From positions 16,465-80,464 of the forward strand of contig CAZJMV010000212.1 of assembly GCA_964547225.1 (NCBI GenBank): a DNA stretch of 64,000 nucleotides, written 5' to 3'. Position numbers and translations under genes: made by a program. The notes under the pieces are model-generated. The model searched no databases. It was given only the letters and a program-made list of their open reading frames with translations, and was not told the origin of the DNA. Below are positions 37,806 to 50,938 of this stretch, piece by piece. Source of the stretch: an uncultured Anaerolineaceae bacterium (GTDB lineage: Bacteria > Chloroflexota > Anaerolineae > Anaerolineales > UBA4823). How positions within the stretch are numbered: the stretch's first letter is position 1; each line of letters starts with the position of its first letter.

Positions 37806-39569
37806 CTATCGATCTGTTTCTCCAAGGACTATATCAATAGAACCAAGGATTGCTACTAAGTCAGCTACTTTGTTTCCAACACTCATCGTTTCATATGCAG
37901 TTAAATTGATAAACGATGGAGCACGAACATGATAACGCCAAGGATTTGGACTGCCATTGGATACAACATAGAAACCCAATTCACCTTTAGGTCCTTCTAC
38001 ACGTCCGTAAGCTTCTCCTGCAGGAACGCGTGCTTGATATTGCGGTTTCCCAGTCTGGATTGGTCCACCTGGAAGATCTCTAATCGCTTGTTGAAGAATA
38101 CGTACACTTTGTCGCATTTCATCAATCCGAACCAAATAACGATCATAAGCATCGCCATGATAACGAACAGCAATATCAAAATCAAAACGATCATAGATGC
38201 TATAAGGATCTGCCCTGCGAACATCATAAGGAACACCGGATGCCCTCAACACTGGTCCACAAGTTGAGTATGCAATAGCTTGTTTAGGAGTTAGAACACC
38301 TACACCTTGGGTCCTTAAGGCAACGATTTCATTATTCGTCAAGTACATATCAATTTCATCGATACGCCGTGGCAGCCGATCGAATGCAAGATCGTGAATT
38401 TTTTCAAAAATACCCTCGGGTAAATCTCTAGCTACACCTCCAAACCGAAAATAATTACACATCATTCGCGAACCAGCCACTGCTTCAAAAACATCCAAGA
38501 TCAATTCACGCTCTTCCAATGCATATAGCATGGGCGTAAAGTAAGCTCCAAGATCATTTAATAATGATCCTATTGCGAATAAGTGATTGGTTATCCTGGT
38601 TAATTCAGCCATAATAACACGAAGATATTCAGCGCGTTCAGGTGGTTTCGTACCCATCAATTTTTCGACCGCTAAGGCGTACCCGAAATTATTGCTCATC
38701 GATGATAAATAATCTAAACGGTCTGTGAAAGGCATATTCTGGAGAAAAGTATTCCGCTCCCCAATTTTTTCATGATTACGATGGAGATACCCCATAACGG
38801 GTCGAAGAGCAGCTACCGATTCACCATTCAAGGCAACGACAACACGGAAAACACCATGTGTCGAAGGATGCTGTGGTCCCATATTGACCACTACAATATC
38901 TGTATCTAATCCGGAATCAGTATCGAGCCTGACATCTTTAAGCAAACTTTCATAAACCGAACGATCATTATCGGGTTCATAAGTTTTCGGATCAAACCCT
39001 TCCGGATAAGAGACATTCTTATGATACGGATTTTTTTTCTCGGATCTAGAGACTTGTCCATCAGGCCAACGTGAATTAAATGGCTTCGCTTCACTTTCAA
39101 AGTAAGCTTCATGCCAATCCTTCCGCAAAGGATACCCGTAAAATCCCTCCCACATTAGAATTCTACGTAAGTCTGGATGACCATTGAACTTAATCCCTAG
39201 CAAATCCCAAACTTCTCGTTCCTGAAAATCTGCCCCCGGGTAAATGGACACCAAAGATGGCACAACAGAATTTTCGCGCGGTGTTTGAGTTTTGAATACT
39301 AGTCCTCTGCCACCAATTGACCTATATGCATGGTATACGACCTCCATATTCCCATCAGGGAGATTATCGACTCCCGTCACCGAAGAAAGATAATCATAGC
39401 CATAATCATCACGAATTGATTTCGCCACTTCAATTAGGTGATCTGCTTTGATAAAATAACCTTCATATCCTTCTCGACCATCAAGTGAGACATAATCAGG
39501 AAATCTGGAAACAATATCCACCTTTTCTATTTGATCAACCGTAACGGAATTTTTCAATTCATTCATCAA
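37806..39569 (-). CDS. nuoCD: fused NADH-quinone oxidoreductase subunits C and D
   Basis: 587 aa. NuoC part reads ..[27 protein letters not shown] linker of about 60 aa follows. NuoD part reads [14 protein letters not shown]...[13 protein letters not shown]. The NiFe-ligand cysteines are absent. Confidence 0.92.
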
Positions 39570-39585
39570 TCATCTCTCCTAGATC

Positions 39586-40257
39586 TTACGCTTGCTCTTC
39601 AGAAAAATTGGTTTCTGAGTTTGAGGATTCCCCTTGCTCTATCATTCTTCTCTGTATCTCATCAAAATCGCGAGGATCCATCAGATCAGGACCTAATATT
39701 GGTACAGGGATTTCGTCGCTAGCATTTTTATCATACCACCGGACATTCTTAATGGATTGATGATCAATTCTCTTTTGAAGAGATATCAAACCATGTAACA
39801 AAGCCTGAGGTGTTGGAGGACAACCAGGGACATAAACATCAACAGGTATAAATTTATCAATTCCAGAGACCACATTATAGCCATCCTTGAACGGTCCTCC
39901 GCCTGAAGCACAAGCCCCCATTGCTAAGACATATTTTGGCTCTGGCATTTGATTATATAGGCGAACAACTTGTGGCGCCATCTTTTTAGTAACAGTACCA
40001 GAGACAATCATAAGATCTGCTTGCCGAGGACTAGGGCGCATGACCTCCATACCAAAACGGGAAAAATCATAGCGACTAGCGGCTGTGCATATCATCTCAA
40101 TTGCACAACAGGCAAGCCCAAACATCATTGGCCAAAGAGACCAACGTCTACTCCAATTATAGATTTTATCAAGGGTGGTTATGTGAATATTATTTTCTAA
40201 CTCTGGCGGGATGTCATACTTCGTTAGATTTAGGTTTTCTTTTTTCATTTCATTCAT
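39586..40257 (-). CDS. nuoB: NADH-quinone oxidoreductase subunit B (N2 cluster) with C-terminal extension
   Basis: 223 aa. [20 protein letters not shown] and VPGCPPTP cluster ligands, with about 60 extra C-terminal residues. Confidence 0.92.
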
Positions 40258-40477
40258 TCGTTAATTGAACCTCCTCGCTCTATTATTATGATGTGAGTTA
40301 TAAAAAACGTTCATAATAAATCAAATAACTCGAACAAAAAAATATGGATGCCGGTATATTAAAAAAAATCCGAGATTAATGCGTGGCGACAATTATACCG
40401 TCTTTTTTCAATAGGTCAACCCAACAATTAAGTAAATATATATTTTCTTAATTGGTGTTGTGGGTTATAATAAACGC

Positions 40478-41092
40478 ATGAAAACTTCTCGTCAACAGAT
40501 TCTTGATCTCATTAGAACACATCAATTATTGACCGTTCCTGATATAAGCAAAGTGCTTCATATGACAAAGGCTAACGTCAGACATCACCTATCAATCCTC
40601 GAAGAACGCGGTGAAATTGAGGCGATAGGCGTTCGACCTCAAATAGGAAAGGGCAGACCAGCCATTTTATACAGCTTGTCTCAAAAAGCAAAGGGGGACA
40701 ATTATGAGCATCTCTGTCATACATTACTAGATTTATTATTCTCTTCAGAGGAAGGGGAGACCGATAGAATTCTAGAACAAGTTGTCAATCGAATGGTTGA
40801 AAAAGTTCAAGAAGATATGGATAAACCGATGCCACTCACCCAACGTCTTTTTGAAATCATTGCTTACCTAAACCGTAATCATTATATGGCACGCTGGGAA
40901 GCACACCATGAAGCTCCTATTATTATTTTCGAAAACTGCCCATACCGAAATATTCTCGACGCTCACCCTGAATTATGTAAAATAGACCAATTGATCTTGA
41001 AAAAACTTACAATGTCTCAGATCCATCAAATAAGTAAGTTTTCAAAGGACAAGCGTGGTATCCTTCAGTGTCGTTTTTTAATAAAAATATAA
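40478..41092 (+). CDS. winged-helix (ArsR/SufR-like) transcriptional regulator
   Basis: SRQQILDLIRTHQLLTVPDISKVLHMTKANVRHHLSILEERGEIEAIG...GKGRPAILYSL. The C-terminal domain has scattered Cys (ENCPYRN...ELCKID...LQCRF). ATG 40478 is preferred over the track's GTG 40460, because a TATAAT lies at 40466-40471. Confidence 0.7.
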   Translation: MKTSRQQILDLIRTHQLLTVPDISKVLHMTKANVRHHLSILEERGEIEAIGVRPQIGKGRPAILYSLSQKAKGDNYEHLCHTLLDLLFSSEEGETDRILEQVVNRMVEKVQEDMDKPMPLTQRLFEIIAYLNRNHYMARWEAHHEAPIIIFENCPYRNILDAHPELCKIDQLILKKLTMSQIHQISKFSKDKRGILQCRFLIKI

Positions 41093-41373
41093 GATGTAAC
41101 AAAGGAAATTCTAAATACTATCCATAATAATTTCTCCAGAATCAAAATTTGCATGTTAAAAAACTACAAATTTCGCATATAATATATACACTAACATTAA
41201 CTCCAATCCTTACAAAACGCTAACAATCAATCAGGTATATCGTAAATAATGAACAAATTAAGATAAATTTAGTGTAAAATATTATTAGAAATTTCTAAGA
41301 GCAAGGTTCTATCTGTCCAATAAAGATACAATTTAAGCTTTTTCAGATTATTAGTTTTTTCGGAGGAGAAATC

Positions 41374-42501
41374 ATGAGCAACACAATCGAGAAAGAAAAT
41401 AAAATAGAAATTTCACGCACAATCCTGATCATCAGTCTGATTTTTATACTTACGCTTTCTTTATCAGGATGCAATTTTATTGCGGAAGAGAAAGATGAAG
41501 ACCTCGAGAAAACACAAGATGCGCTCGAGTTACAGCAGACAATTATGGCTCAGCAAGCCACAATCGATGCACAAAATTCTCAGGCAACATCTCAATCCGA
41601 ACAACCCGTGGACTTTGAAGCCACTGAAGCCGCAGTTCAACAACCATCCGTAGATATCGAAGCCACCCAATTAGCCCTTGCTGCACAACAAACTGCAGCA
41701 GCACAACAACAAATACAAGCTACTCAACCGCCTCCACCCACGCAACCACCCCTTCAAGAACCGACAGTCGCTTCTCAAGATTTTACTGAAATGATGAAAT
41801 CTGCTTCCATATTACTTTACGAAGACATGGTTGAGATTCCAGCAGAATATCGCTATGTAAAACGAACGCTAGATACAATGGGTTTACGGTATAAGGACGA
41901 CGGGAATGCTATGGGATGGCTTAAATCCGACTTACTCGGTGGCTCTCCCGCAGGTGGACCCTGGGATCTTGTTATTATCGCAGCGGAATTTCGCGAACAA
42001 GTATCTGGTGAATACTTTGATTACCTTAATGACATATTAAACCAAGGAACCTCCGTCATCGTCGAAGCTTGGTATCTAGACCAAGTTTCTGAGGGGAAAG
42101 TTAGTACGATACTGACTAAATGTGGCGTCCAAGTATATCCATACTTCCCTGCTACAGGTAGCGTCAACGACGTAATCGTTTGGCCACTACCTGGAATGTC
42201 ATCACACCCACTTCTGTCACAACCAAATGGCGGATTACGCTTCACGAAAGCACGAGACACCTGGTTGTGGACTTTCGACTTGGGCGATCACACCGCTTAC
42301 ACCGGTCGCGGAGACGCCCAAATTCTGATGGGAACCGACGCCCAAGATGGAAATAAAGATGGAGTACTCACCGTTTGCATGGGCGGGCAATTTACATTGA
42401 TGACATTTAGTAGCCACTCCTTCCCATATGATATCATGTATCCTCTTTGGGAAAATATGATCTATAATGCCTTAAAGATTCGTCTAACTGGTAGTTATTA
42501 G
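41374..42501 (+). CDS. lipoprotein paralogue 1: signal/lipobox - Q/A/T-rich linker - uncharacterised ~235-aa domain
   Basis: 375 aa. GGAGGAG SD. Lipobox (LSLSGC). Low-complexity linker (AQQATIDAQNSQATSQ...QATQPPPPTQPP). The conserved domain starts MKSASILLYEDMV and ends PLWENMIYNALKIRLTGSY. Confidence 0.85.
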   Translation: MSNTIEKENKIEISRTILIISLIFILTLSLSGCNFIAEEKDEDLEKTQDALELQQTIMAQQATIDAQNSQATSQSEQPVDFEATEAAVQQPSVDIEATQLALAAQQTAAAQQQIQATQPPPPTQPPLQEPTVASQDFTEMMKSASILLYEDMVEIPAEYRYVKRTLDTMGLRYKDDGNAMGWLKSDLLGGSPAGGPWDLVIIAAEFREQVSGEYFDYLNDILNQGTSVIVEAWYLDQVSEGKVSTILTKCGVQVYPYFPATGSVNDVIVWPLPGMSSHPLLSQPNGGLRFTKARDTWLWTFDLGDHTAYTGRGDAQILMGTDAQDGNKDGVLTVCMGGQFTLMTFSSHSFPYDIMYPLWENMIYNALKIRLTGSY

Positions 42502-42514
42502 ATATGAGGAAAAA

Positions 42515-42546
42515 TATAGAGAGGGCTAAGAATATCCCTCTCTATA
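42515..42546 (+). other. 11-bp perfect hairpin without U-tract between paralogues 1 and 2
   Basis: TATAGAGAGGG (42515-42525) pairs with CCCTCTCTATA (42536-42546). The loop is 10 nt and CAGAATT follows. Confidence 0.6.
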
Positions 42547-42555
42547 CAGAATTAT

Positions 42556-43629
42556 ATGGTATTTATAACGAAAGAGAGAGATCAACACTTCAAGAAAACG
42601 CAAAAATTATCTTCTCGGTTTTTTAGCATCATTGTATTAGCATTTTTCGTGTTTTCCCTATTACAATTAAGTTGTGTTCTTTCATCGTTAATCCCAAGCG
42701 ATGTTGATAGCACAACAACAATTTTAAGTTTAAACCAAACCAGTATTGCAAATACAGTTACTCAACGAATAATTACCGCTTCGACCTTGACACCATCTAC
42801 TCCGCTTACTACAACCATCTCACCAACCGCACCGATTTCTTCAGAAACCATTTCACCTGTAACTTCAACAACTCCAACTCCTGATCTTTCAGAAACAGAT
42901 GATTTGATTTCCAGAATGAAATCTGCCAACATACTCCTTTATGAAGATATGGTCGAGAATAGAGATGCAAGACGCTATATCAGAGATACACTTGATAGAA
43001 TGGAACTTCCGTACACAGATATTGGCAGCGCTGATGGATGGTTAAAAACCAGCATAATTGGTGGTGTACCGGGTGGTGGTGAATGGGATCTAATCATTAT
43101 CGCTTCAGAAGCGAAAATGGGGATTTCAGGAGAATTCTTTCAATATATCAATAACGCCTTAGATAAGGACATATCCGTTATTCTAGAAATAGGGTATCTT
43201 GATCAAATAGCCAATGGGGTTGCAAATGAAGTTCTCGAACGCTGTGGTGTTGCCTTTCAAAGTGATTGGAGAAATATCCACCCTTCAAGAATGGTAATGT
43301 TTCCTTTAGGAACCACGCATCCAATTTTAAATGAACCTAATAGCGGACTTTCTTTCACGAAAGTAACTGAATATTGGTGGGATCCTTCTGGTGAAAATGT
43401 ATATGATATTGGCGATCGAATGCAATTAACCTTCAACGGTGATGCTATTTTATTACTAGGCACATCAGCAATTGACAAAAACAAAAATGGTACATTAACA
43501 AACTGCATCAATAACCGTCTTACACTACAGACCTTTTCTTCCCACCAAATTGCATATGAAACTATGCAGCTTTTATGGGAAAATTATATCTATAACGCGT
43601 TAAAGATCCGCATCCTTGGTAGCTATTAA
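42556..43629 (+). CDS. lipoprotein/secreted paralogue 2: signal anchor - T/S/P-rich linker - same uncharacterised domain
   Basis: 357 aa. Hydrophobic N-terminus ending LLQLSC (imperfect lipobox). T/S/P linker. The domain runs MKSANILLYEDMV ... LLWENYIYNALKIRILGSY. Confidence 0.85.
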   Translation: MVFITKERDQHFKKTQKLSSRFFSIIVLAFFVFSLLQLSCVLSSLIPSDVDSTTTILSLNQTSIANTVTQRIITASTLTPSTPLTTTISPTAPISSETISPVTSTTPTPDLSETDDLISRMKSANILLYEDMVENRDARRYIRDTLDRMELPYTDIGSADGWLKTSIIGGVPGGGEWDLIIIASEAKMGISGEFFQYINNALDKDISVILEIGYLDQIANGVANEVLERCGVAFQSDWRNIHPSRMVMFPLGTTHPILNEPNSGLSFTKVTEYWWDPSGENVYDIGDRMQLTFNGDAILLLGTSAIDKNKNGTLTNCINNRLTLQTFSSHQIAYETMQLLWENYIYNALKIRILGSY

Positions 43630-43678
43630 TAAATCGGTTTCTGAATTCTCGGGAGTTGTTTACACGTGGAGGTAGAAT

Positions 43679-44782
43679 ATGAAAGAGAAAGAAAAGAAAA
43701 ATGGAATTCATTTTCTTGCGCTACTCGTCTCACTGATAATATTTCTATTTATATTGATCGCTTGTAGCGAAGGTTCGACCAATAATAATTCAGCTAAGCA
43801 GACCGAGCTACGAGAAACTGAGCTAGAAATCCACGTTGAACAAACTTTACGCTCTCAAGGCGGGGGTAGCGCTCAAAGCACAACAACAATGACCTCAAAT
43901 CAATCTCCAGCACAACAGCCAACCAATACAGAAAAAGCAGAACCTACGGAAGATATCAACGCGACTCAAGCCGCGAGTGCAGCCACCGACGCAGCTTTAA
44001 ATACTCAGAATGCGATGGAAGAATTTGCACAAACCCCTGTCGGATTGAGTGAAGAAGCGCTTCAAGAAAAGATGAAAAAAGCAAATATTCTGCTCTACGA
44101 AGATATGGTTGCCAATCTGGATACAAACCGCTATGTGAAAGAAACTCTAGATAAAATGGGTTTGACTTATAAAGATGACGGAAATGCATCCGGTTGGTTA
44201 AAATCAGACCTAAATAGCGGTGCGCCAAATGGTCAACCTTGGGACTTAGTTATCGTTGCCAATGAATCAAAAGCGAATATTTCTGGAGAGTTTTTTGAAT
44301 ATGTTATGGATGCACTTGACGCGGGTTCTTCTGTGATCATGGAAGTCTGGTACTTAGACGATACCTTTTCCGGAACAGCTAGTACACTACTTGAACGATG
44401 TGGTATCGCCTTCGGAGCAGATTGGGTGAGAATACCCCCTACTCGTATGATCATGTTTCCACTGGATTCCTCTCACCCTGTTTTACAAGAACCTAATTCT
44501 GGATTAGGGTTTACCGATGTCACCAGTTATTGGTGGGATGATTCCGGTGCGATCGATTATGATATTGGAGATCTCGTTAAATTAACTGGATCCGGAGACG
44601 CAGATTTACTTCTAGGGACAAAAGCGACTGAAAAATCCACACATGCTACGTTAACCGTTTGTATGGATGGACAATTAACGCTCCAAACATTTTCGTCACA
44701 CCAGTTAACGTTTAAGACTATGGAACCTTTATGGGAGAACTATATCTATAATGCATTAAAATACCGCTTTGAAAATAATTAA
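43679..44782 (+). CDS. lipoprotein paralogue 3: signal/lipobox - mixed linker - same uncharacterised domain
   Basis: 367 aa. GGAGG SD. Lipobox (FILIAC). The domain runs MKKANILLYEDMV ... PLWENYIYNALKYRFENN. Confidence 0.85.
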   Translation: MKEKEKKNGIHFLALLVSLIIFLFILIACSEGSTNNNSAKQTELRETELEIHVEQTLRSQGGGSAQSTTTMTSNQSPAQQPTNTEKAEPTEDINATQAASAATDAALNTQNAMEEFAQTPVGLSEEALQEKMKKANILLYEDMVANLDTNRYVKETLDKMGLTYKDDGNASGWLKSDLNSGAPNGQPWDLVIVANESKANISGEFFEYVMDALDAGSSVIMEVWYLDDTFSGTASTLLERCGIAFGADWVRIPPTRMIMFPLDSSHPVLQEPNSGLGFTDVTSYWWDDSGAIDYDIGDLVKLTGSGDADLLLGTKATEKSTHATLTVCMDGQLTLQTFSSHQLTFKTMEPLWENYIYNALKYRFENN

Positions 44783-44804
44783 TATATTGTTTCCTAAATT
44801 TTTT

Positions 44805-44826
44805 TCCCCGAAAGGGGATTTTTTTA
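44805..44826 (+). terminator. intrinsic terminator after paralogue 3
   Basis: TCCCC-GAAA-GGGGA (44805-44818) followed by TTTTTTT. The stem is GC-rich with a GNRA-like tetraloop. Confidence 0.75.
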
Positions 44827-44921
44827 TCAAACTAACTCTCTAAAACTGAAACAATGGCTTGAAAAACAGTAAAATAATCTCAATCAATTTAGGAATCAAG
44901 ACAAATAGAAAAAAGGTAATA

Positions 44922-45404
44922 ATGAACATCGGACATTTTTTAGGAGGAGTAGGTGCTTGTATCTATGACCCTCAAATAAAAAAATATCTAATCTTACTCA
45001 GATCTGAACATAGGGATTTTGGAGCTAACCAATGGGAATGTTTAACCGGCAGAGTCAACCAAGGTGAGAGTTTCTCACAAGCTTTGCATCGCGAAGTGTA
45101 TGAGGAAATTAAATGTAAAATCAAAATCGATTTTATCATAGGGACAACTCATTTTTTCAGGGGAAGTGAAAACCCCAAGAATGAATTATTAGGTGTAATC
45201 TACTCCTGTTCAATTTTAGACAAACAAATCCCAAAACTAGGAAAGGAACATTCCGCTCTCCGTTGGGTTAGCGCTAACGAGGCATACGATATTCTTCCCA
45301 AAGGCAATTGGCTTTACAATGCAATTCAAAAAGCTGAAATGATAAGATCTCAAATAACTACTGAATTACTTGAATATTTTCAAGTTGAAGGTTTTGAAAT
45401 CTGA
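44922..45404 (+). CDS. Nudix hydrolase
   Basis: Nudix box (GRVNQGESFSQALHREVYEEIKC). ATG 44922 is preferred over the track's TTG 44859. Confidence 0.8.
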   Translation: MNIGHFLGGVGACIYDPQIKKYLILLRSEHRDFGANQWECLTGRVNQGESFSQALHREVYEEIKCKIKIDFIIGTTHFFRGSENPKNELLGVIYSCSILDKQIPKLGKEHSALRWVSANEAYDILPKGNWLYNAIQKAEMIRSQITTELLEYFQVEGFEI

Positions 45405-45497
45405 AACTTTCTCGATCAAGTATATAAAAATTAACTAATCTCGTTAATTCTTTATAGATTAAAACCATCAAGAATAGAATAGGAAAACAATACTCAA

Positions 45498-45929
45498 ATG
45501 GTAAAGAAAAGCAAGAAAAGCGCTTTTATCTTAAGTTGTTCGATCGTTTTCTCATTTGTTCTGACAAGTGCTTTCCTTAATTTATTATTGCCTTATTTAA
45601 TGACAGGTAAACCAACCGTTATTATCCAGAAACCCCAAGATTTATCGACACCCGCTGAGATTCTTTCTTTAGTATTCCTGCTAATAATCATCATTGGAGG
45701 ATTGATTACTATTGGTACTTACTGGCTATATAAATTCTTTGGAGAGAATTATTTCGGTACAAGGAGTCTTCTTCGTTGGATTTTCTTTGGGATCTTATTT
45801 GCAATATTTACGAAATCCCCAGATTGGATATTTAGTGAAAATCTAGCAACAATCAAGAACCTAGTCCGGTTAGCTGGTGTATTCGCAGCGTTCTTTCTTT
45901 CAAGAATAGCTTTTCCACTAGAAAAGTAA
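45498..45929 (+). CDS. hypothetical small membrane protein (about 4 TM)
   Basis: 143 aa with four hydrophobic stretches. No recognisable motif. Confidence 0.55.
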   Translation: MVKKSKKSAFILSCSIVFSFVLTSAFLNLLLPYLMTGKPTVIIQKPQDLSTPAEILSLVFLLIIIIGGLITIGTYWLYKFFGENYFGTRSLLRWIFFGILFAIFTKSPDWIFSENLATIKNLVRLAGVFAAFFLSRIAFPLEK

Positions 45930-45952
45930 ATTTTAATTAGGTAACCAGAAAA

Positions 45953-46132
45953 CTAGAATTTCTCAAATTTATCAATACTCTGTAAATTTTTTAAATCTCT
46001 GTAGCTTTGACGCCAACGAAAGCAGAGGCTAAGAACGTACAAAAAAATCGTACCTAGTATTACAGAAAATCCAGCTATAAAATAGACGGTTGTCTCCGCT
46101 GGTTGTTGAGCTATTAATGCCATAGCCATCAT
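45953..46132 (-). CDS. ccmD: heme exporter protein CcmD (59 aa, below the ORF-track cutoff)
   Basis: My translation is MMAMALIAQQPAETTVYFIAGFSVILGTIFLYVLSLCFRWRQSYRDLKNLQSIDKFEKF: a single TM followed by a basic segment. Its ATG overlaps the ccmC TGA (ATGA at 46129-46132). Confidence 0.7.
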   Translation of the reverse strand: MMAMALIAQQPAETTVYFIAGFSVILGTIFLYVLSLCFRWRQSYRDLKNLQSIDKFEKF

Positions 46133-46869
46133 TCTCCTTTATCGTAAAGTCTCATCTTCAATTGAATGATCTTCTCCTGAAGAATTCCCAGTCGAACACG
46201 ATGCCACAACAGATCTAGGTAAATAAAAGAAAAGGAAACCAAACTAAAGAAAAAAACAAATTGCATACTAGCTGTCATATCAAAACTACCTGTTGCTCCA
46301 GGTTGATTAGACCCAATAATTACTGGGTGAATTGTTCTATAAAGTCTCGCTGAAAAAAAAGTAAGCGGGACACTTACAAATCCAATAATTGCATACACAG
46401 CCCCAAAACGTGCCATCTTATCAGGATCATCAATTCCAGATCTTAGCATCAGATATGCAGCATACACGAAGATCATAATGGTTGTTGTAGTTAATCTAGG
46501 GTCCCAAGTCCACCAAGTATTCCAAATCGGTCGCGCCCAAATTGAACCAGAAACAACTGCAATAATTGAGAATACGAGACCAATTTCAACAGACGATAAA
46601 CCAATCGTATCCCACTTAATCTCTTCACGGGATAAATATAGGATGCCAACAACAGCAGCCACTATAAAACTTAACATACCGACCCAAGCAGAAGCAACAT
46701 GAAAATAAAAAACTTTCTGAACATTTCCCATAATCGCCTCAATGGGTGCAAAGAAAAAAACCAATCCAGTCGCGATGAACAATAAGGTTATAGTAACAAC
46801 ATCAAGAATTTCTAATAATTTCGGTTTCGGTACCAAAATTGCCTCCTTCACTGATGAGAATTGAAACAT
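46129..46869 (-). CDS. ccmC: heme exporter protein CcmC
   Basis: WWD signature (WARPIWNTWWTWDPRL) and conserved His loops. The start is placed at M29 of the track ORF (ATG 46869), just after the ccmB stop. The track start 46953 would overlap ccmB by 65 nt. No clear SD, so the start is uncertain. Confidence 0.88.
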   Translation of the reverse strand: MFQFSSVKEAILVPKPKLLEILDVVTITLLFIATGLVFFFAPIEAIMGNVQKVFYFHVASAWVGMLSFIVAAVVGILYLSREEIKWDTIGLSSVEIGLVFSIIAVVSGSIWARPIWNTWWTWDPRLTTTTIMIFVYAAYLMLRSGIDDPDKMARFGAVYAIIGFVSVPLTFFSARLYRTIHPVIIGSNQPGATGSFDMTASMQFVFFFSLVSFSFIYLDLLWHRVRLGILQEKIIQLKMRLYDKGE

Positions 46870-48395: not shown

Positions 48396-50378
48396 TTATC
48401 CTTCTTCCTGAGACTTGTCTGAAACATCCAACATCTTTGCTAAACGGTTCTTTAATTCAAAACGTCTTTCTATATAAGCATCTTTTGGTAAATTTCCCTG
48501 TTTATAGAGATCATCTAACGTGAGGATAGCATCCATGAGTGATTCAGTGCTTTCAACATTTAATTGATCAAGTAGATCATTTTCTTTGATGATATTATTA
48601 TATTTAACTGGTTGTCTCCTCTTGAAGAACCAAACACCAACAATCATCAGAGCAATCACTAATGTACCCAAACCAAATAGTAGATCACTGCTGAATTGGC
48701 TATTCACTATCGGTATTTTTAGCGATGCGCGACCAGATACCTCAAGGCTCAATTTTTCTCCTCTTTCAAGACTTTCCCCGTTATACATATGATAAAGTAA
48801 TCCTTGCACATCGCGTGTGCCTACATCTTCAATACCTTTTCCTTCAACTAGGATGCCTTCTGGCACCAAAATTACAATAGCATCCGTATTCAAGACCATT
48901 GAGCTAATAAAATCGATTTTATGATCAAAGGGAAGTTGATATGAAAACATGACCTGGTGTTGACCAACTCCAGGTCGAACTGGTAAATAATCCCCAAATC
49001 CATCCTCCGTCAATGTATAACGTCCTCCTATAGTTCCATCTTGAAATTCAAGATTCGTTATACCTTCAGGTAAAGTAAATTTAATGGCGGGTTTTTCCTT
49101 CGAGGCTGATACAAGTGTTTTATTACTGGAATTTGAAATCACATAAAGTTCCACAACTTTAAGAACATCTTGATCTTCTGTACTTATCGTTTCAAAAAAA
49201 TAGTGCAAGCGATCAACGGACAAGGCAGATACATCTGTCGTAGTCTCATAGATTTCGATCAATAATTCTTCAACAAAATTATCCTGATTGACTACAACGA
49301 TATCTGAACCGAAAATCGCTCCTTCATATTCTATAGAAGCTAAAAACGCCCTACCATCAATCATTTCAATGTCTTGAAATTCAAAACCTCCCATATCATC
49401 TAACGTTACTGTATCAGTAATAACCAATTGCATATGATCAAACGCGTGCAATGTGATCATCTCTCCAACCGGAAGCATCCCTCCCGAAAGATTTTCTACT
49501 ACACCAGATATGGTAGCAATATTTGGATCCTCTTGATCGGAAAATTTTACTGTTGGGGTTACTTTTGATTCAGCAATATCTTCTGAAGTGATTTCTATAT
49601 CAGGCGTAGCTTTTGCAGTTTCATTTTCCAAATAAAAACTGAGTGATCTTACATAATCAGCTACAGCCCAACGATCATCTTCAGATATTTTGTCGTTAAA
49701 ACCCGACATATAGGGAGAAATACCTTCAGATATAACTTGATATATATTACTCTGTGAAATCGAAGACATAAATTCTTGATCACGAAAATCAGGCATTTTG
49801 GTATTATCTAAGTTATCCACCTGAGATCCATCCCCACGACCATCTTCACCATGACACTCAATACAATAGTTATTGTAATTCTCTTTAGCAAATATGATCT
49901 TTTCAGGTGTGGTAGCTAATTGATATACATATGCAATAACATCCCATCTTTGTCGATCTGTCAGGTCTGAAAAGGGAGGCATATACTTTTCCAGATGACC
50001 TTCTTCAAGCAATAAATACCAATCTCTTGGAATCGCATTTCTCACAAACTCCGGATCACTGATGGGTGGAACTGAAACCGGTAAATCAGCAGATCGTTCA
50101 CCATCACCCAGACCAAAATAACCATGACAACTGATACAATTATCTTCGTAAACCACTTTACCATTCGACGGGTTGGGTGGAACAAGTGGATAAAGAATAT
50201 CAGCAACTTCTACACTCGGTATACTAGGAATGGGTGTGGCAACAAAATCTTGTGGGGGTTTAATATCTTGTGCTAACGAAAAACTACAAGCTGAGATGGT
50301 TGCAGTAAGCAATAAAAAAAATAGAGCTCTAATCGTTTTTGAGCTTAGTTTGCTAATGATGTATTGTATGTTTTGCAT
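48396..50378 (-). CDS. diheme c-type cytochrome lipoprotein with large extracytoplasmic beta-rich domains, C-terminal TM and cytoplasmic helical tail
   Basis: Two CxxCH sites (CISCHG, CIECHG), each followed by a Met-ligand region (KYMPPF, PYMSGF). A CarboxypepD_reg-like segment is present. The TM is LLFGLGTLVIALMIVGVWFF. The start is placed at ATG 50378 (MQNIQYIISKLSSKTIRALFFLLLTATISAC, lipobox) rather than track 50468, which overlaps the upstream gene. Confidence 0.85.
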   Translation of the reverse strand: MQNIQYIISKLSSKTIRALFFLLLTATISACSFSLAQDIKPPQDFVATPIPSIPSVEVADILYPLVPPNPSNGKVVYEDNCISCHGYFGLGDGERSADLPVSVPPISDPEFVRNAIPRDWYLLLEEGHLEKYMPPFSDLTDRQRWDVIAYVYQLATTPEKIIFAKENYNNYCIECHGEDGRGDGSQVDNLDNTKMPDFRDQEFMSSISQSNIYQVISEGISPYMSGFNDKISEDDRWAVADYVRSLSFYLENETAKATPDIEITSEDIAESKVTPTVKFSDQEDPNIATISGVVENLSGGMLPVGEMITLHAFDHMQLVITDTVTLDDMGGFEFQDIEMIDGRAFLASIEYEGAIFGSDIVVVNQDNFVEELLIEIYETTTDVSALSVDRLHYFFETISTEDQDVLKVVELYVISNSSNKTLVSASKEKPAIKFTLPEGITNLEFQDGTIGGRYTLTEDGFGDYLPVRPGVGQHQVMFSYQLPFDHKIDFISSMVLNTDAIVILVPEGILVEGKGIEDVGTRDVQGLLYHMYNGESLERGEKLSLEVSGRASLKIPIVNSQFSSDLLFGLGTLVIALMIVGVWFFKRRQPVKYNNIIKENDLLDQLNVESTESLMDAILTLDDLYKQGNLPKDAYIERRFELKNRLAKMLDVSDKSQEEG

Positions 50379-50395
50379 ATAATTGCCTAAATTAA

Positions 50396-50938
50396 TTAAT
50401 TGATTTTTTCCCCGCATTTTGGACAAAATATATCGGATTTTCTCACAGAATTGCCGCACCTTGGACAAAAACCCATACCCTTTTCATTATGAGTTCTTCG
50501 CCTTTCAGCGAGTAATACTTCTATATCATCGTCTGGATCTACAATAGATTCTGAATGTCGCTTTTCTTGATAAACATCTTCTCCAATAGGATCTGCCTCG
50601 CCTATCTCAGATTCACCAATAGATAGTTCAGGAATTGTCTCCCTTGGGTTTACTTCATCTAGCTTTTGTAATACCTCAGCGCCTTGCGTTAAGAGACTTT
50701 CACGTTGTTGCGAATAATCCTGCTCATATATCTTTCCGACTGCATAATCAAAATCAAGCTCCTGTAATGAAACGAGAATGCGATCACTTTTTGCCATCAA
50801 AGTGGAACGTTCATGATCTTGTGGCAATATGGAAGGATCATGTCTCGTTTTGGATTCATCCTCTAAGATCGGACGAGCCACAAATAATCCTACTAGTAAT
50901 AATAAAGCGAGAAAGAAGAAAATAGCGCCTATGTCCAT
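50396..50938 (-). CDS. membrane protein: N-terminal TM - helical region - C-terminal zinc ribbon (possible CcmI-N-like accessory factor)
   Basis: 180 aa. MDIGAIFFFLALLLLVGLFVARP TM and a CPRCGNSVRKSDIFCPKCG zinc ribbon. It sits inside the ccm cluster. Confidence 0.75.
   Translation of the reverse strand: MDIGAIFFFLALLLLVGLFVARPILEDESKTRHDPSILPQDHERSTLMAKSDRILVSLQELDFDYAVGKIYEQDYSQQRESLLTQGAEVLQKLDEVNPRETIPELSIGESEIGEADPIGEDVYQEKRHSESIVDPDDDIEVLLAERRRTHNEKGMGFCPRCGNSVRKSDIFCPKCGEKIN

Follow-up and report, generated by a model that had tools for sequence, protein, structure and literature searches.

Three tandem genes encode paralogs with a shared C-terminal domain

The window analyzed here is a stretch of 64,000 nucleotides from an uncultured Anaerolineaceae bacterium (contig CAZJMV010000212.1, positions 16,465 to 80,464 of the forward strand), and we focus on three consecutive genes within it whose products share a C-terminal domain. 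According to the list of open reading frames (ORFs) and the alignment, the genes lie on the + strand at 41374-42501 (copy 1, 375 amino acids [aa]), 42556-43629 (copy 2, 357 aa), and 43679-44782 (copy 3, 367 aa, a 100% match to P0001). These coordinates, lengths, and strand agree exactly with a first-pass annotation that had been made from the letters of the window, as do the hydrophobic N-termini ending in a cysteine that it described (LSLSGC, LLQLSC, and FILIAC). Each paralog consists of a signal peptide that ends in this Cys, a tether of ~80-107 aa, and a conserved domain of ~236 aa. In copy 1, the Cys of the lipobox LSGC is Cys33 (41470-41472), the tether comprises residues 34-133 (41473-41772) and is rich in Q, A, T, and P, and the domain, as delimited by alignment and an AlphaFold2 (AF2) model, comprises residues ~134-375 (41773-42498). 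Copy 2 carries Cys40 in a non-canonical QLSC, followed by a T/S/P-rich tether and the domain at 42916-43626. Copy 3 has the lipobox LIAC with Cys29, a tether at 43766-44041 that contains the family motif KQTELRETELEIHVEQTLRSQ, and its domain at 44072-44779, with all of these parts on the + strand.

The C-terminal ~236-aa parts of the three copies are readily alignable, with protein identities of 51.4% (copies 1 and 2), 55.1% (copies 1 and 3), and 58.6% (copies 2 and 3) and DNA identities of 69-71%. All of the conserved blocks reported in the first-pass annotation are found in the alignment (ILLYEDM, WDL(V/I)I, ISGE(F/Y)F, SVI.E..YLD, HP.L..PN.GL.FT, TL.TFSSH, and LWEN.IYNAL). Pairwise tblastn searches between the three domains inside the window gave E-values of 1e-71 to 1e-97, and the same program detected no fourth copy of the domain in the 64 kb. 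Copy 3 is present on 18 contigs of independent JGI and Logan assemblies, one of which is record MLSed_10000197 of JGI 3300001533, and the identical triplet with identical gene calls occurs at the four assembly places shown. Because the same locus and gene calls recur on independent assemblies, and given the strong purifying conservation, we rule out that the triplet is an artifact of assembly or annotation.

The domain defines a lineage-restricted orphan family

No named family could be recognized for this domain by eye, and our searches are in line with that assessment. The three copies have no domain match in Pfam-A (E ≤ 1), none in NCBIfam, where only noise from the signal and tether regions was returned, and none in PADLOC. 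A scan of 45 members one by one against Pfam-A at E ≤ 10 gave nothing relevant, and profiles from A1 and A3 found only chance matches among PDB sequences (E ≥ 0.08). Our literature searches likewise found no published description of the domain. The family comprises no fewer than 462 clusters (90% identity) and 343 representatives (50% identity), 277 of the latter scoring below 1e-10, and no Pfam domain was found on the relatives among the 90%-identity matches listed. The names given to the homologs by their sources are "hypothetical protein" throughout, with the exception of one evidently spurious "FlgE". This label ("flagellar hook protein FlgE" on P0003 from JGI) was almost certainly transferred in error through the Q/A/T-rich tether.

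In a survey that used one genome per species, all 79 loci came from metagenome-assembled genomes labeled Anaerolineae, Anaerolineales, Anaerolinea, Brevefilum, Ornatilinea, Chloroflexota/Chloroflexi, or "uncultured Chloroflexia" (79/79). The homologs are thus restricted to one lineage and unannotated, rather than ubiquitous, already annotated, or matched to a characterized family. Several assemblies have more than one locus, and one assembly has three. Within 6 kb of the match, we counted a single copy in 62/79 loci, two tandem copies in 17/79, and three copies in none; triplication is therefore not typical of a family whose members usually occur singly or in pairs.

A neighbor-joining tree of the copies from window-type and related loci resolves two old clades, of which the "upstream-copy" clade holds copy 1 and the "downstream-copy" clade holds copies 2 and 3. 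Within the latter, the closest genome (L001) has a downstream copy that pairs with copy 3, and copy 2 splits off immediately outside this pair. Because there are two old clades and copies 2 and 3 fall within one of them, the tandem pair is, by this tree, ancestral in the subgroup, and copy 2 is a lineage-specific extra duplicate. By the same reading, copy 3 is the ortholog of the downstream copy in two-copy genomes. The old triplication proposed in the first-pass annotation thus holds for the tandem pair but not for the third copy, which the tree places as a later, lineage-specific addition. Upstream and downstream paralogs are distinguished by a single conserved R/K position.

The domain is predicted to adopt a class-I glutamine amidotransferase-like fold

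For the copy 3 domain, AF2 was run on a 39-sequence alignment and gave a model with a predicted local distance difference test score (pLDDT) of 91.7 and a predicted template modeling score (pTM) of 0.92. In the AF2 model of full-length copy 1 (68 sequences), the domain (134-375) forms a block with pLDDT mostly of 84-98 and the same order of elements. When both models were compared with the PDB by Foldseek, the matches included class-I glutamine amidotransferases (GATases; 2d7j, 2a9v, 1i7q_B, 8hx6-9, and 1gpm), gamma-glutamyl hydrolase (1l9x and 4l8f), MetA/HTS (2vdj), and the middle domain of GH42 beta-galactosidase (5e9a). The E-values were 1e-5 to 1e-3, the probability ~1.0, and the sequence identity 8-15%, with TM-scores of up to 0.65 when normalized to the small GATase targets. 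The luminal domain of Wbp1 from the oligosaccharyltransferase (OST) was also matched by the copy 3 model (6c26_B, E = 3.5e-5; 6ezn_G, 1.2e-4; 7oci_G, 3.4e-4) and was recovered again with the copy 1 model, and these matches are no better than those to true GATases.

The models share the order beta1-alpha-beta2-alpha-beta3-alpha-beta4-(elbow)-alpha-beta5, followed by an antiparallel block and a C-terminal helix, which, in our reading, corresponds one-to-one to the GATase topology. Because two confident AF2 models give the same Foldseek matches, we regard the assignment of the domain to the class-I glutamine-amidotransferase-like fold, in which it is a sequence orphan, as solid at the level of predicted structure. 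The guess of a non-catalytic fold of this class, which had been made from the sequence by eye, thereby gains support from two models, from Foldseek, and from the missing canonical Cys nucleophile described below. The accompanying suggestion of ThuA or DUF4159 did not hold up: neither was named among the top 50 Foldseek matches, and we rejected membership in these families, as no profile match was found at E ≤ 10 in 45 members. ThuA and DUF4159 belong to the same superfamily-level fold class (Pfam clan CL0014).

The glutaminase residues are absent and an invariant polar set is present

To describe the former active site, we number residues from M132 of copy 3 (position 1) and give conservation over 359 domain sequences. 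The nucleophile elbow is expected after beta4, since the element order maps on the GATase topology, and the segment after beta4 reads I-[ILM]-E-x-W-x-L-D across the family. No Cys or Ser is found at this elbow in any of the sequences, as the position after E91 is V, I, T, E, or L. The only invariant Cys residues are C110 and C197, both of which lie away from the elbow, and no G-x-C-x-G motif is present. Invariant H210, within Q-T-[FYH]-S-[ST]-H, corresponds in topology to the catalytic His of GATases ("QFHPE"), an equivalence drawn from the order of secondary structure and not from a residue-level structural alignment. The residue at +2 from H210 is Y, L, or F throughout, and no His-x-Glu is found. 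A comparison by hhalign of the family profile with Escherichia coli PabA, for which an approximate query was used, gave a probability of 0.3% and was unusable, and residues were therefore placed via topology. Because the canonical triad is absent, the family does not belong to the catalytic GATases, and we rejected a true glutaminase for want of a nucleophile. There is likewise no His-x-Glu and no Pfam match to GATase or Peptidase_C26.

Other residues of the domain are fully or almost fully conserved. D58, E65, E91, C110, G166, C197, and H210 are 100% conserved, W57, N223, W154, D167, T206, E10, N142, Q205, and W221 are 97-99% conserved, and D11 and W93 are 92-93% conserved. Among these, E10/D11 lie at the end of beta1, E65 at the end of beta3, and E91 at the end of beta4. 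In the GATase fold, these strand ends line the active-site cleft. From the fold topology, we infer that E10/D11, W57/D58, E65, E91, W93, N142, W154, D164/D167, and H210 cluster at the C-terminal ends of beta1, beta3, and beta4 and ahead of the last helix, at the position of the glutaminase cleft. C110 and C197 are likely paired in a disulfide, which would be in keeping with export of the protein.

The domain is joined to a predicted membrane anchor by a conserved tether

The lipobox motif ([LVI][ASTVI][GAS]C) is matched by copy 1 (LSGC) and copy 3 (LIAC) but not by copy 2 (QLSC). In an alignment of 68 full-length homologs the N-terminal Cys is invariant, and a lipobox-like motif occurs within the first 60 residues of 147/201 single-domain members (83 strict and 64 relaxed). 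The surface tethering that had been proposed for all three proteins is thus backed by the invariant Cys and by the frequency of the motif in the family, but less so for copy 2, whose site is non-canonical.

Across the family, the tether has a median length of 104 aa and is rich in Q, A, T, and P. Units of the form ET.L..V.QT..AQ and QQAT..AQ recur family-wide, and in the tethers of the 68 sequences Thr56 is invariant and Thr47 nearly so (copy 1 numbering). Copies 1 and 3 have kept the recurring units, and copy 2 has a T/S/P-rich replacement. The tethers had initially been described as unrelated low-complexity sequences, a description that the family-wide units and the two conserved Thr residues contradict, with a replacement seen in copy 2 only. 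In the AF2 model of copy 1, residues 10-35 form an N-terminal helix, and the tether consists of long helices at 42-70 and 95-114, with modest pLDDT (~57-72), and disordered residues 73-91 (pLDDT < 50). The conserved tether Thr residues could be glycosylation sites, or the tether helices could act as an interaction element.

Relatives of the domain occur in receptor-like fusions

We read the domain architectures among the 150 best representatives of the family, most of which are stand-alone proteins of 320-400 aa. In the fusions that resemble receptors, the domain follows a kinase (Pkinase), a transmembrane (TM) helix, and a P/T linker (P0185 and P0231), an FHA domain, a TM helix, and a linker (P0173 and P0174), or a TIR_2 domain and a TM helix (P0261, 496 aa). 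One TM helix is predicted between the signaling part and the domain in each of these proteins, and on reading the sequences we found the conserved residues to be kept in the kinase and FHA fusions. Further architectures are a lipoprotein with VWA and further extracellular modules ahead of the domain (P0249), the domain with DUF4352 (P0182 and P0199), two tandem domains (P0201), and WD40 with the domain (P0258, possibly incomplete at its N-terminus), where no TM helix was found. The one-pass layouts suggest an extracytoplasmic sensor domain, of which they would be expected. Because the domain follows a TM helix behind kinase, FHA, and TIR domains, we read it as an extracytoplasmic ligand-binding module.

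The TIR part of P0261 matches PADLOC models of Thoeris-, Argonaute-, and SEFIR-type TIR domains, with E-values down to 2e-14. A defense system was considered as a candidate function for the family and rejected, as the three copies have no PADLOC match and there is only a single TIR fusion.

A proposed role in ligand binding and its alternatives

We propose that the three genes encode membrane-tethered surface proteins in which a domain of the GATase fold, without glutaminase chemistry, binds a ligand in a rebuilt cleft. This proposal is in our judgment evenly poised between being right and being wrong. The proteins would be exported via their signal peptides and anchored on the outer face of the cytoplasmic membrane, probably by lipidation of the lipobox Cys in copies 1 and 3, and for copy 2 the anchor may be non-canonical or consist of a signal anchor that stays uncleaved. 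The partly helical Q/A/T/P-rich tether of ~80-107 aa would then hold the globular domain off the membrane. A long tether appears sensible because Chloroflexota are considered to be monoderm with multilayered envelopes (PMC13319060). In the domain itself, the Cys nucleophile and His-x-Glu would have been lost and an almost invariant polar and aromatic cluster kept at the position of the glutaminase cleft, so rebuilt that it would bind a ligand instead of hydrolyzing glutamine. We speculate that a site lined by carboxylates, Trp, and His would suit a cationic or carbohydrate ligand, which could derive from the cell envelope. Seen across the family, the domain would be a generic extracytoplasmic recognition module of Anaerolineae, deployed mostly as free tethered proteins (single or as an ancient tandem pair) and occasionally linked by one TM helix to a Ser/Thr kinase, FHA, or TIR domain.

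A more specific form of this proposal, to which we give somewhat less than an even chance, is that of an Anaerolineae-specific sensing domain in which an invariant Glu/Glu/Asp/His/Trp set has replaced the triad and recognizes an envelope-derived or environmental ligand, both in free tethered lipoproteins, as an ancient heterologous pair, and in the ectodomains of Ser/Thr kinase, FHA, and TIR receptors. If true, the domain would be a functional counterpart, in filamentous monoderm bacteria, of the PASTA-type wall sensors. In a bolder variant, the invariant Glu/His pair would represent a new catalytic type in the GATase fold.

Several observations weigh against a ligand-binding surface module. 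The QLSC of copy 2 lies outside the canonical lipobox, the signaling fusions are rare (~5 of the 150 best representatives), and the best 120 matches in a search with the P0231 ectodomain are all stand-alone proteins. The neighborhoods differ by locus type and have no partner common to all types; therefore, genomic context assigns no function. The predicted clustering of the conserved residues in one cleft is derived from fold topology only, and the fully invariant Glu/Glu/Asp/His set would suit a catalytic site equally well.

This last point leads to the first alternative, in which the domain is an active extracytoplasmic enzyme that uses a new catalytic set in the old cleft (e.g. a Glu91/His210 dyad with E65, D58, and E10/D11). 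Its substrate would be found in the envelope or environment, for example a peptide or gamma-glutamyl bond, a peptidoglycan stem peptide, or a glycan, and the tether would provide reach within the wall. The conservation of E65, E91, D58, and H210 in 100% of the 359 sequences, receptor fusions included, is what an enzyme would call for, and H210 sits topologically where the catalytic His of GATases does, between the last strand and the C-terminal helix. Nucleophiles other than Cys are used elsewhere in this fold, e.g. Ser in peptidase S51. Moreover, one ortholog group is encoded directly downstream of a class A penicillin-binding protein (PBP), beside an HtrA-like protease and an extracytoplasmic function (ECF) sigma/anti-sigma pair. 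However, the association with PBP and HtrA is limited to one locus type, the domain shows no profile similarity to any hydrolase family, and the elbow has no small-x-nucleophile-x-small pattern but bulky flanks instead (I/L/M and W). Fusion to kinase, FHA, and TIR domains is also more typical of sensor domains, and overall we consider an enzyme unlikely.

In a second alternative, which we judge improbable, the domain would serve in protein-protein docking or as a scaffold, in the manner of the GIFT-type domains of Wbp1/OST48 and IFT52. Here, the ancient tandem pair could form a heterodimer that recruits or regulates envelope machinery, for example a class A PBP, in analogy to the lipoprotein activators LpoA and LpoB with their long tethers. 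The Foldseek matches to the Wbp1 luminal domain (6c26_B, 6ezn_G, and 7oci_G) are consistent with such a role, as Wbp1 has been discussed as a docking platform (PMC7226087). So are the long flexible tether ahead of the domain, the two paralog clades that lie side by side in many genomes (17/79 loci with two tandem copies), and the gene order of PBP followed by a family gene in ~20 loci. On the other hand, 62/79 loci are single-copy, and no partner is conserved across locus types. The one R/K difference between the clades gives little sign of a specialized heterodimer interface and no support for a specialized heterodimer. For a pure docking surface, a His and invariant charges where the active site used to be would also be unusual.

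Least probable is that the pocket binds a metal ion and that the proteins handle metals or redox outside the cytoplasm. The neighborhood in the window (a SufR-like regulator, an Mrp/ApbC-like gene, complex I, and Ccm heme export with a c-type cytochrome) would be in keeping with this, as would the carboxylate/His cluster with two invariant Cys, the sub-threshold SufR match of the upstream regulator, and the conservation of the window-type neighborhood in ~10 loci. However, only one of at least five locus types has that neighborhood, the nuo and ccm genes on its flanks run on the opposite strand, the SufR score falls far short of its cut-off (37 vs 179 bits), and no metal-binding family was matched.

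Relationship to known systems

The ligand-binding module that we favor has its closest structural counterparts in class-I GATases (TrpG/PabA, the N-terminal domain of GuaA, and the glutaminase domain of CTP synthase), with which it shares the alpha/beta fold and the element order. The most conserved residues of the family, at strand ends and in the loop before the C-terminal helix, correspond in position to the glutaminase site. In contrast to class-I GATases, to which it has no detectable sequence similarity, the family lacks the elbow Cys/Ser and the Glu at His+2, its domain is ~45 residues longer, and its two invariant Cys lie elsewhere. In addition, the domain is predicted to be extracytoplasmic and membrane-tethered, whereas class-I GATases are cytoplasmic synthase subunits. 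Gamma-glutamyl hydrolase/peptidase C26 and MetA/HTS have the same fold according to Foldseek but possess the Cys nucleophile that is absent in the family.

The GIFT-type domain of OST48/Wbp1 (also of GldG and IFT52) is likewise non-catalytic, extracytoplasmic or luminal, and located next to a membrane anchor, and the Wbp1/GIFT relatives of the fold have been proposed to be sugar-binding or docking domains, not enzymes (PMC7226087). The family differs from these in having no Pfam profile match, no OST complex, a distinct invariant set, and a distribution restricted to Anaerolineae. Membership in GldG/GIFT (ABC_transp_aux) was rejected for want of a Pfam profile match, and of the ABC-2 type transporters (GldA/GldF-like) looked for as associated genes, only CcmA/CcmB were found nearby, on the opposite strand and in one locus type. 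The ectodomains of receptor Ser/Thr kinases, such as the PASTA domains of PknB-type kinases, offer a likeness in function only, being C-terminal to a single TM helix. Their fold is unrelated, and the fusions of our family are rare beside the free form, the domain also occurring as a stand-alone protein.

The novelty lies in the family, an orphan in sequence and restricted to one lineage, and in its unusual use outside the cytoplasm, on tethers and in receptors; the fold itself is very well known. Sediments, digesters, and activated sludge harbor Anaerolineae in abundance, although few have been cultured and their envelope biology is almost unknown. The family has hundreds of unannotated members in this group, often with several paralogous loci per genome, and the strictness of its invariant polar set equals that of an enzyme active site. 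A formal definition would provide a new Pfam-level family and a handle on envelope sensing or remodeling in monoderm filaments, as well as another case of the GATase fold repurposed outside the cytoplasm. The finding resolves no long-standing question and overturns nothing, and it merits a Pfam entry and biochemical follow-up by domain and envelope specialists.

The triplet as a candidate transcription unit

Based on matches to consensus sequences, we read the triplet as its own operon. The 281-bp gap 5' of copy 1 contains a sigma-70-like promoter candidate (TTAAAA-16-TATAAT, 41156-41183, +), which matches 10/12 positions in a consensus scan and is suggestive only, promoter-like sites in the region being no more frequent than in shuffled sequences. 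No operator-like inverted repeat was found in this gap, and an Rfam scan of 40200-46200 returned no riboswitch or leader family that could name a ligand. The Shine-Dalgarno sequence GGAGGAG lies just 5' of the copy 1 ATG at 41374, and GGAGGT precedes copy 3; none was obvious for copy 2 in the sequence as read. The genes of the triplet are spaced ~50 bp apart.

Between copies 1 and 2, we found an RNA hairpin (42515-42546, +) with a perfect 11-bp stem (TATAGAGAGGG / CCCTCTCTATA), a folding energy of -18.4 kcal/mol, and a z-score of -3.2 versus shuffles. It has no T-run on its 3' side, and copy 2 starts 10 nt downstream. This hairpin may be an intercistronic element for processing, stability, or translation control. 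A terminator-like hairpin, CCCCGAAAGGGG, is located 22 nt past the copy 3 stop (44804-44825, +) and is flanked by T-runs. With its 5-bp stem, -10.8 kcal/mol, and z = -1.6 it is weak and suggestive only, and it probably marks the end of the three-gene transcription unit.

Genomic neighborhoods of the family

The gene directly upstream of copy 1 encodes an ArsR/SufR-like winged helix-turn-helix (HTH) regulator (40460-41092, +; Pfam HTH_5, 8e-9) and is situated in the window between the complex I genes and the triplet. The regulator matches SufR below threshold (TIGR02702, 37 of the required 179 bits), several Cys are found in the C-terminal half of the protein, and the gene lies directly upstream of family genes in 10 related loci. 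Downstream of copy 3 are a Nudix hydrolase (44859-45404, +), for which JGI calls a shorter 160-aa form, and a predicted multi-pass membrane protein of 143 aa (45498-45929, +) that has no Pfam, NCBIfam, or PADLOC match. These two genes follow on the same strand in ~9-10 related loci.

Across the family, we distinguish at least five locus types. Type A, the type of the window (~10-12 loci), has NuoI-D-B on the opposite strand and, on the same strand as one another, the HTH regulator, one to three family genes, the Nudix gene, sometimes DapF, and the small membrane protein, with CcmC/B/A and a cytochrome on the opposite strand at the far side. The ArsR/SufR-like regulator is the sole directly adjacent same-strand partner in this type. 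In type B, family genes are divergent from a MoxR(AAA_3)-DUF58-DUF4129 cluster, beside which a divergent tandem family pair is found in L006, L008, L010, L011, and L028. Elsewhere, clusters of the MoxR-DUF58 type accompany VWA or Bat-type envelope proteins. Type C (~20-24 loci) consists of RecN, a class A PBP, sometimes SQS_PSY and a GGR-like gene, and then the family gene, with an HtrA-like protease, a second Nudix gene, an anti-sigma factor, and an ECF sigma factor on the convergent side; this context hints at the envelope. The family gene follows YchF in type D and lies beside an inositol monophosphatase in type E.

Two further features of the window concern the genes that flank the triplet on the opposite strand. 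On one side, a 587-aa ORF (37806-39569, -) resembles, by eye, a fused NuoC-NuoD of complex I, followed by NuoB (39586-40257), and NuoD is found as two ORFs in some related loci. On the other side, next to ccmABC-like genes, a 690-aa protein (48396-50468, -) has two CxxCH heme-binding motifs (CISCH and CIECH), a middle region of large size, and a TM helix at its C-terminus, and would be an unusually large membrane-anchored c-type cytochrome.

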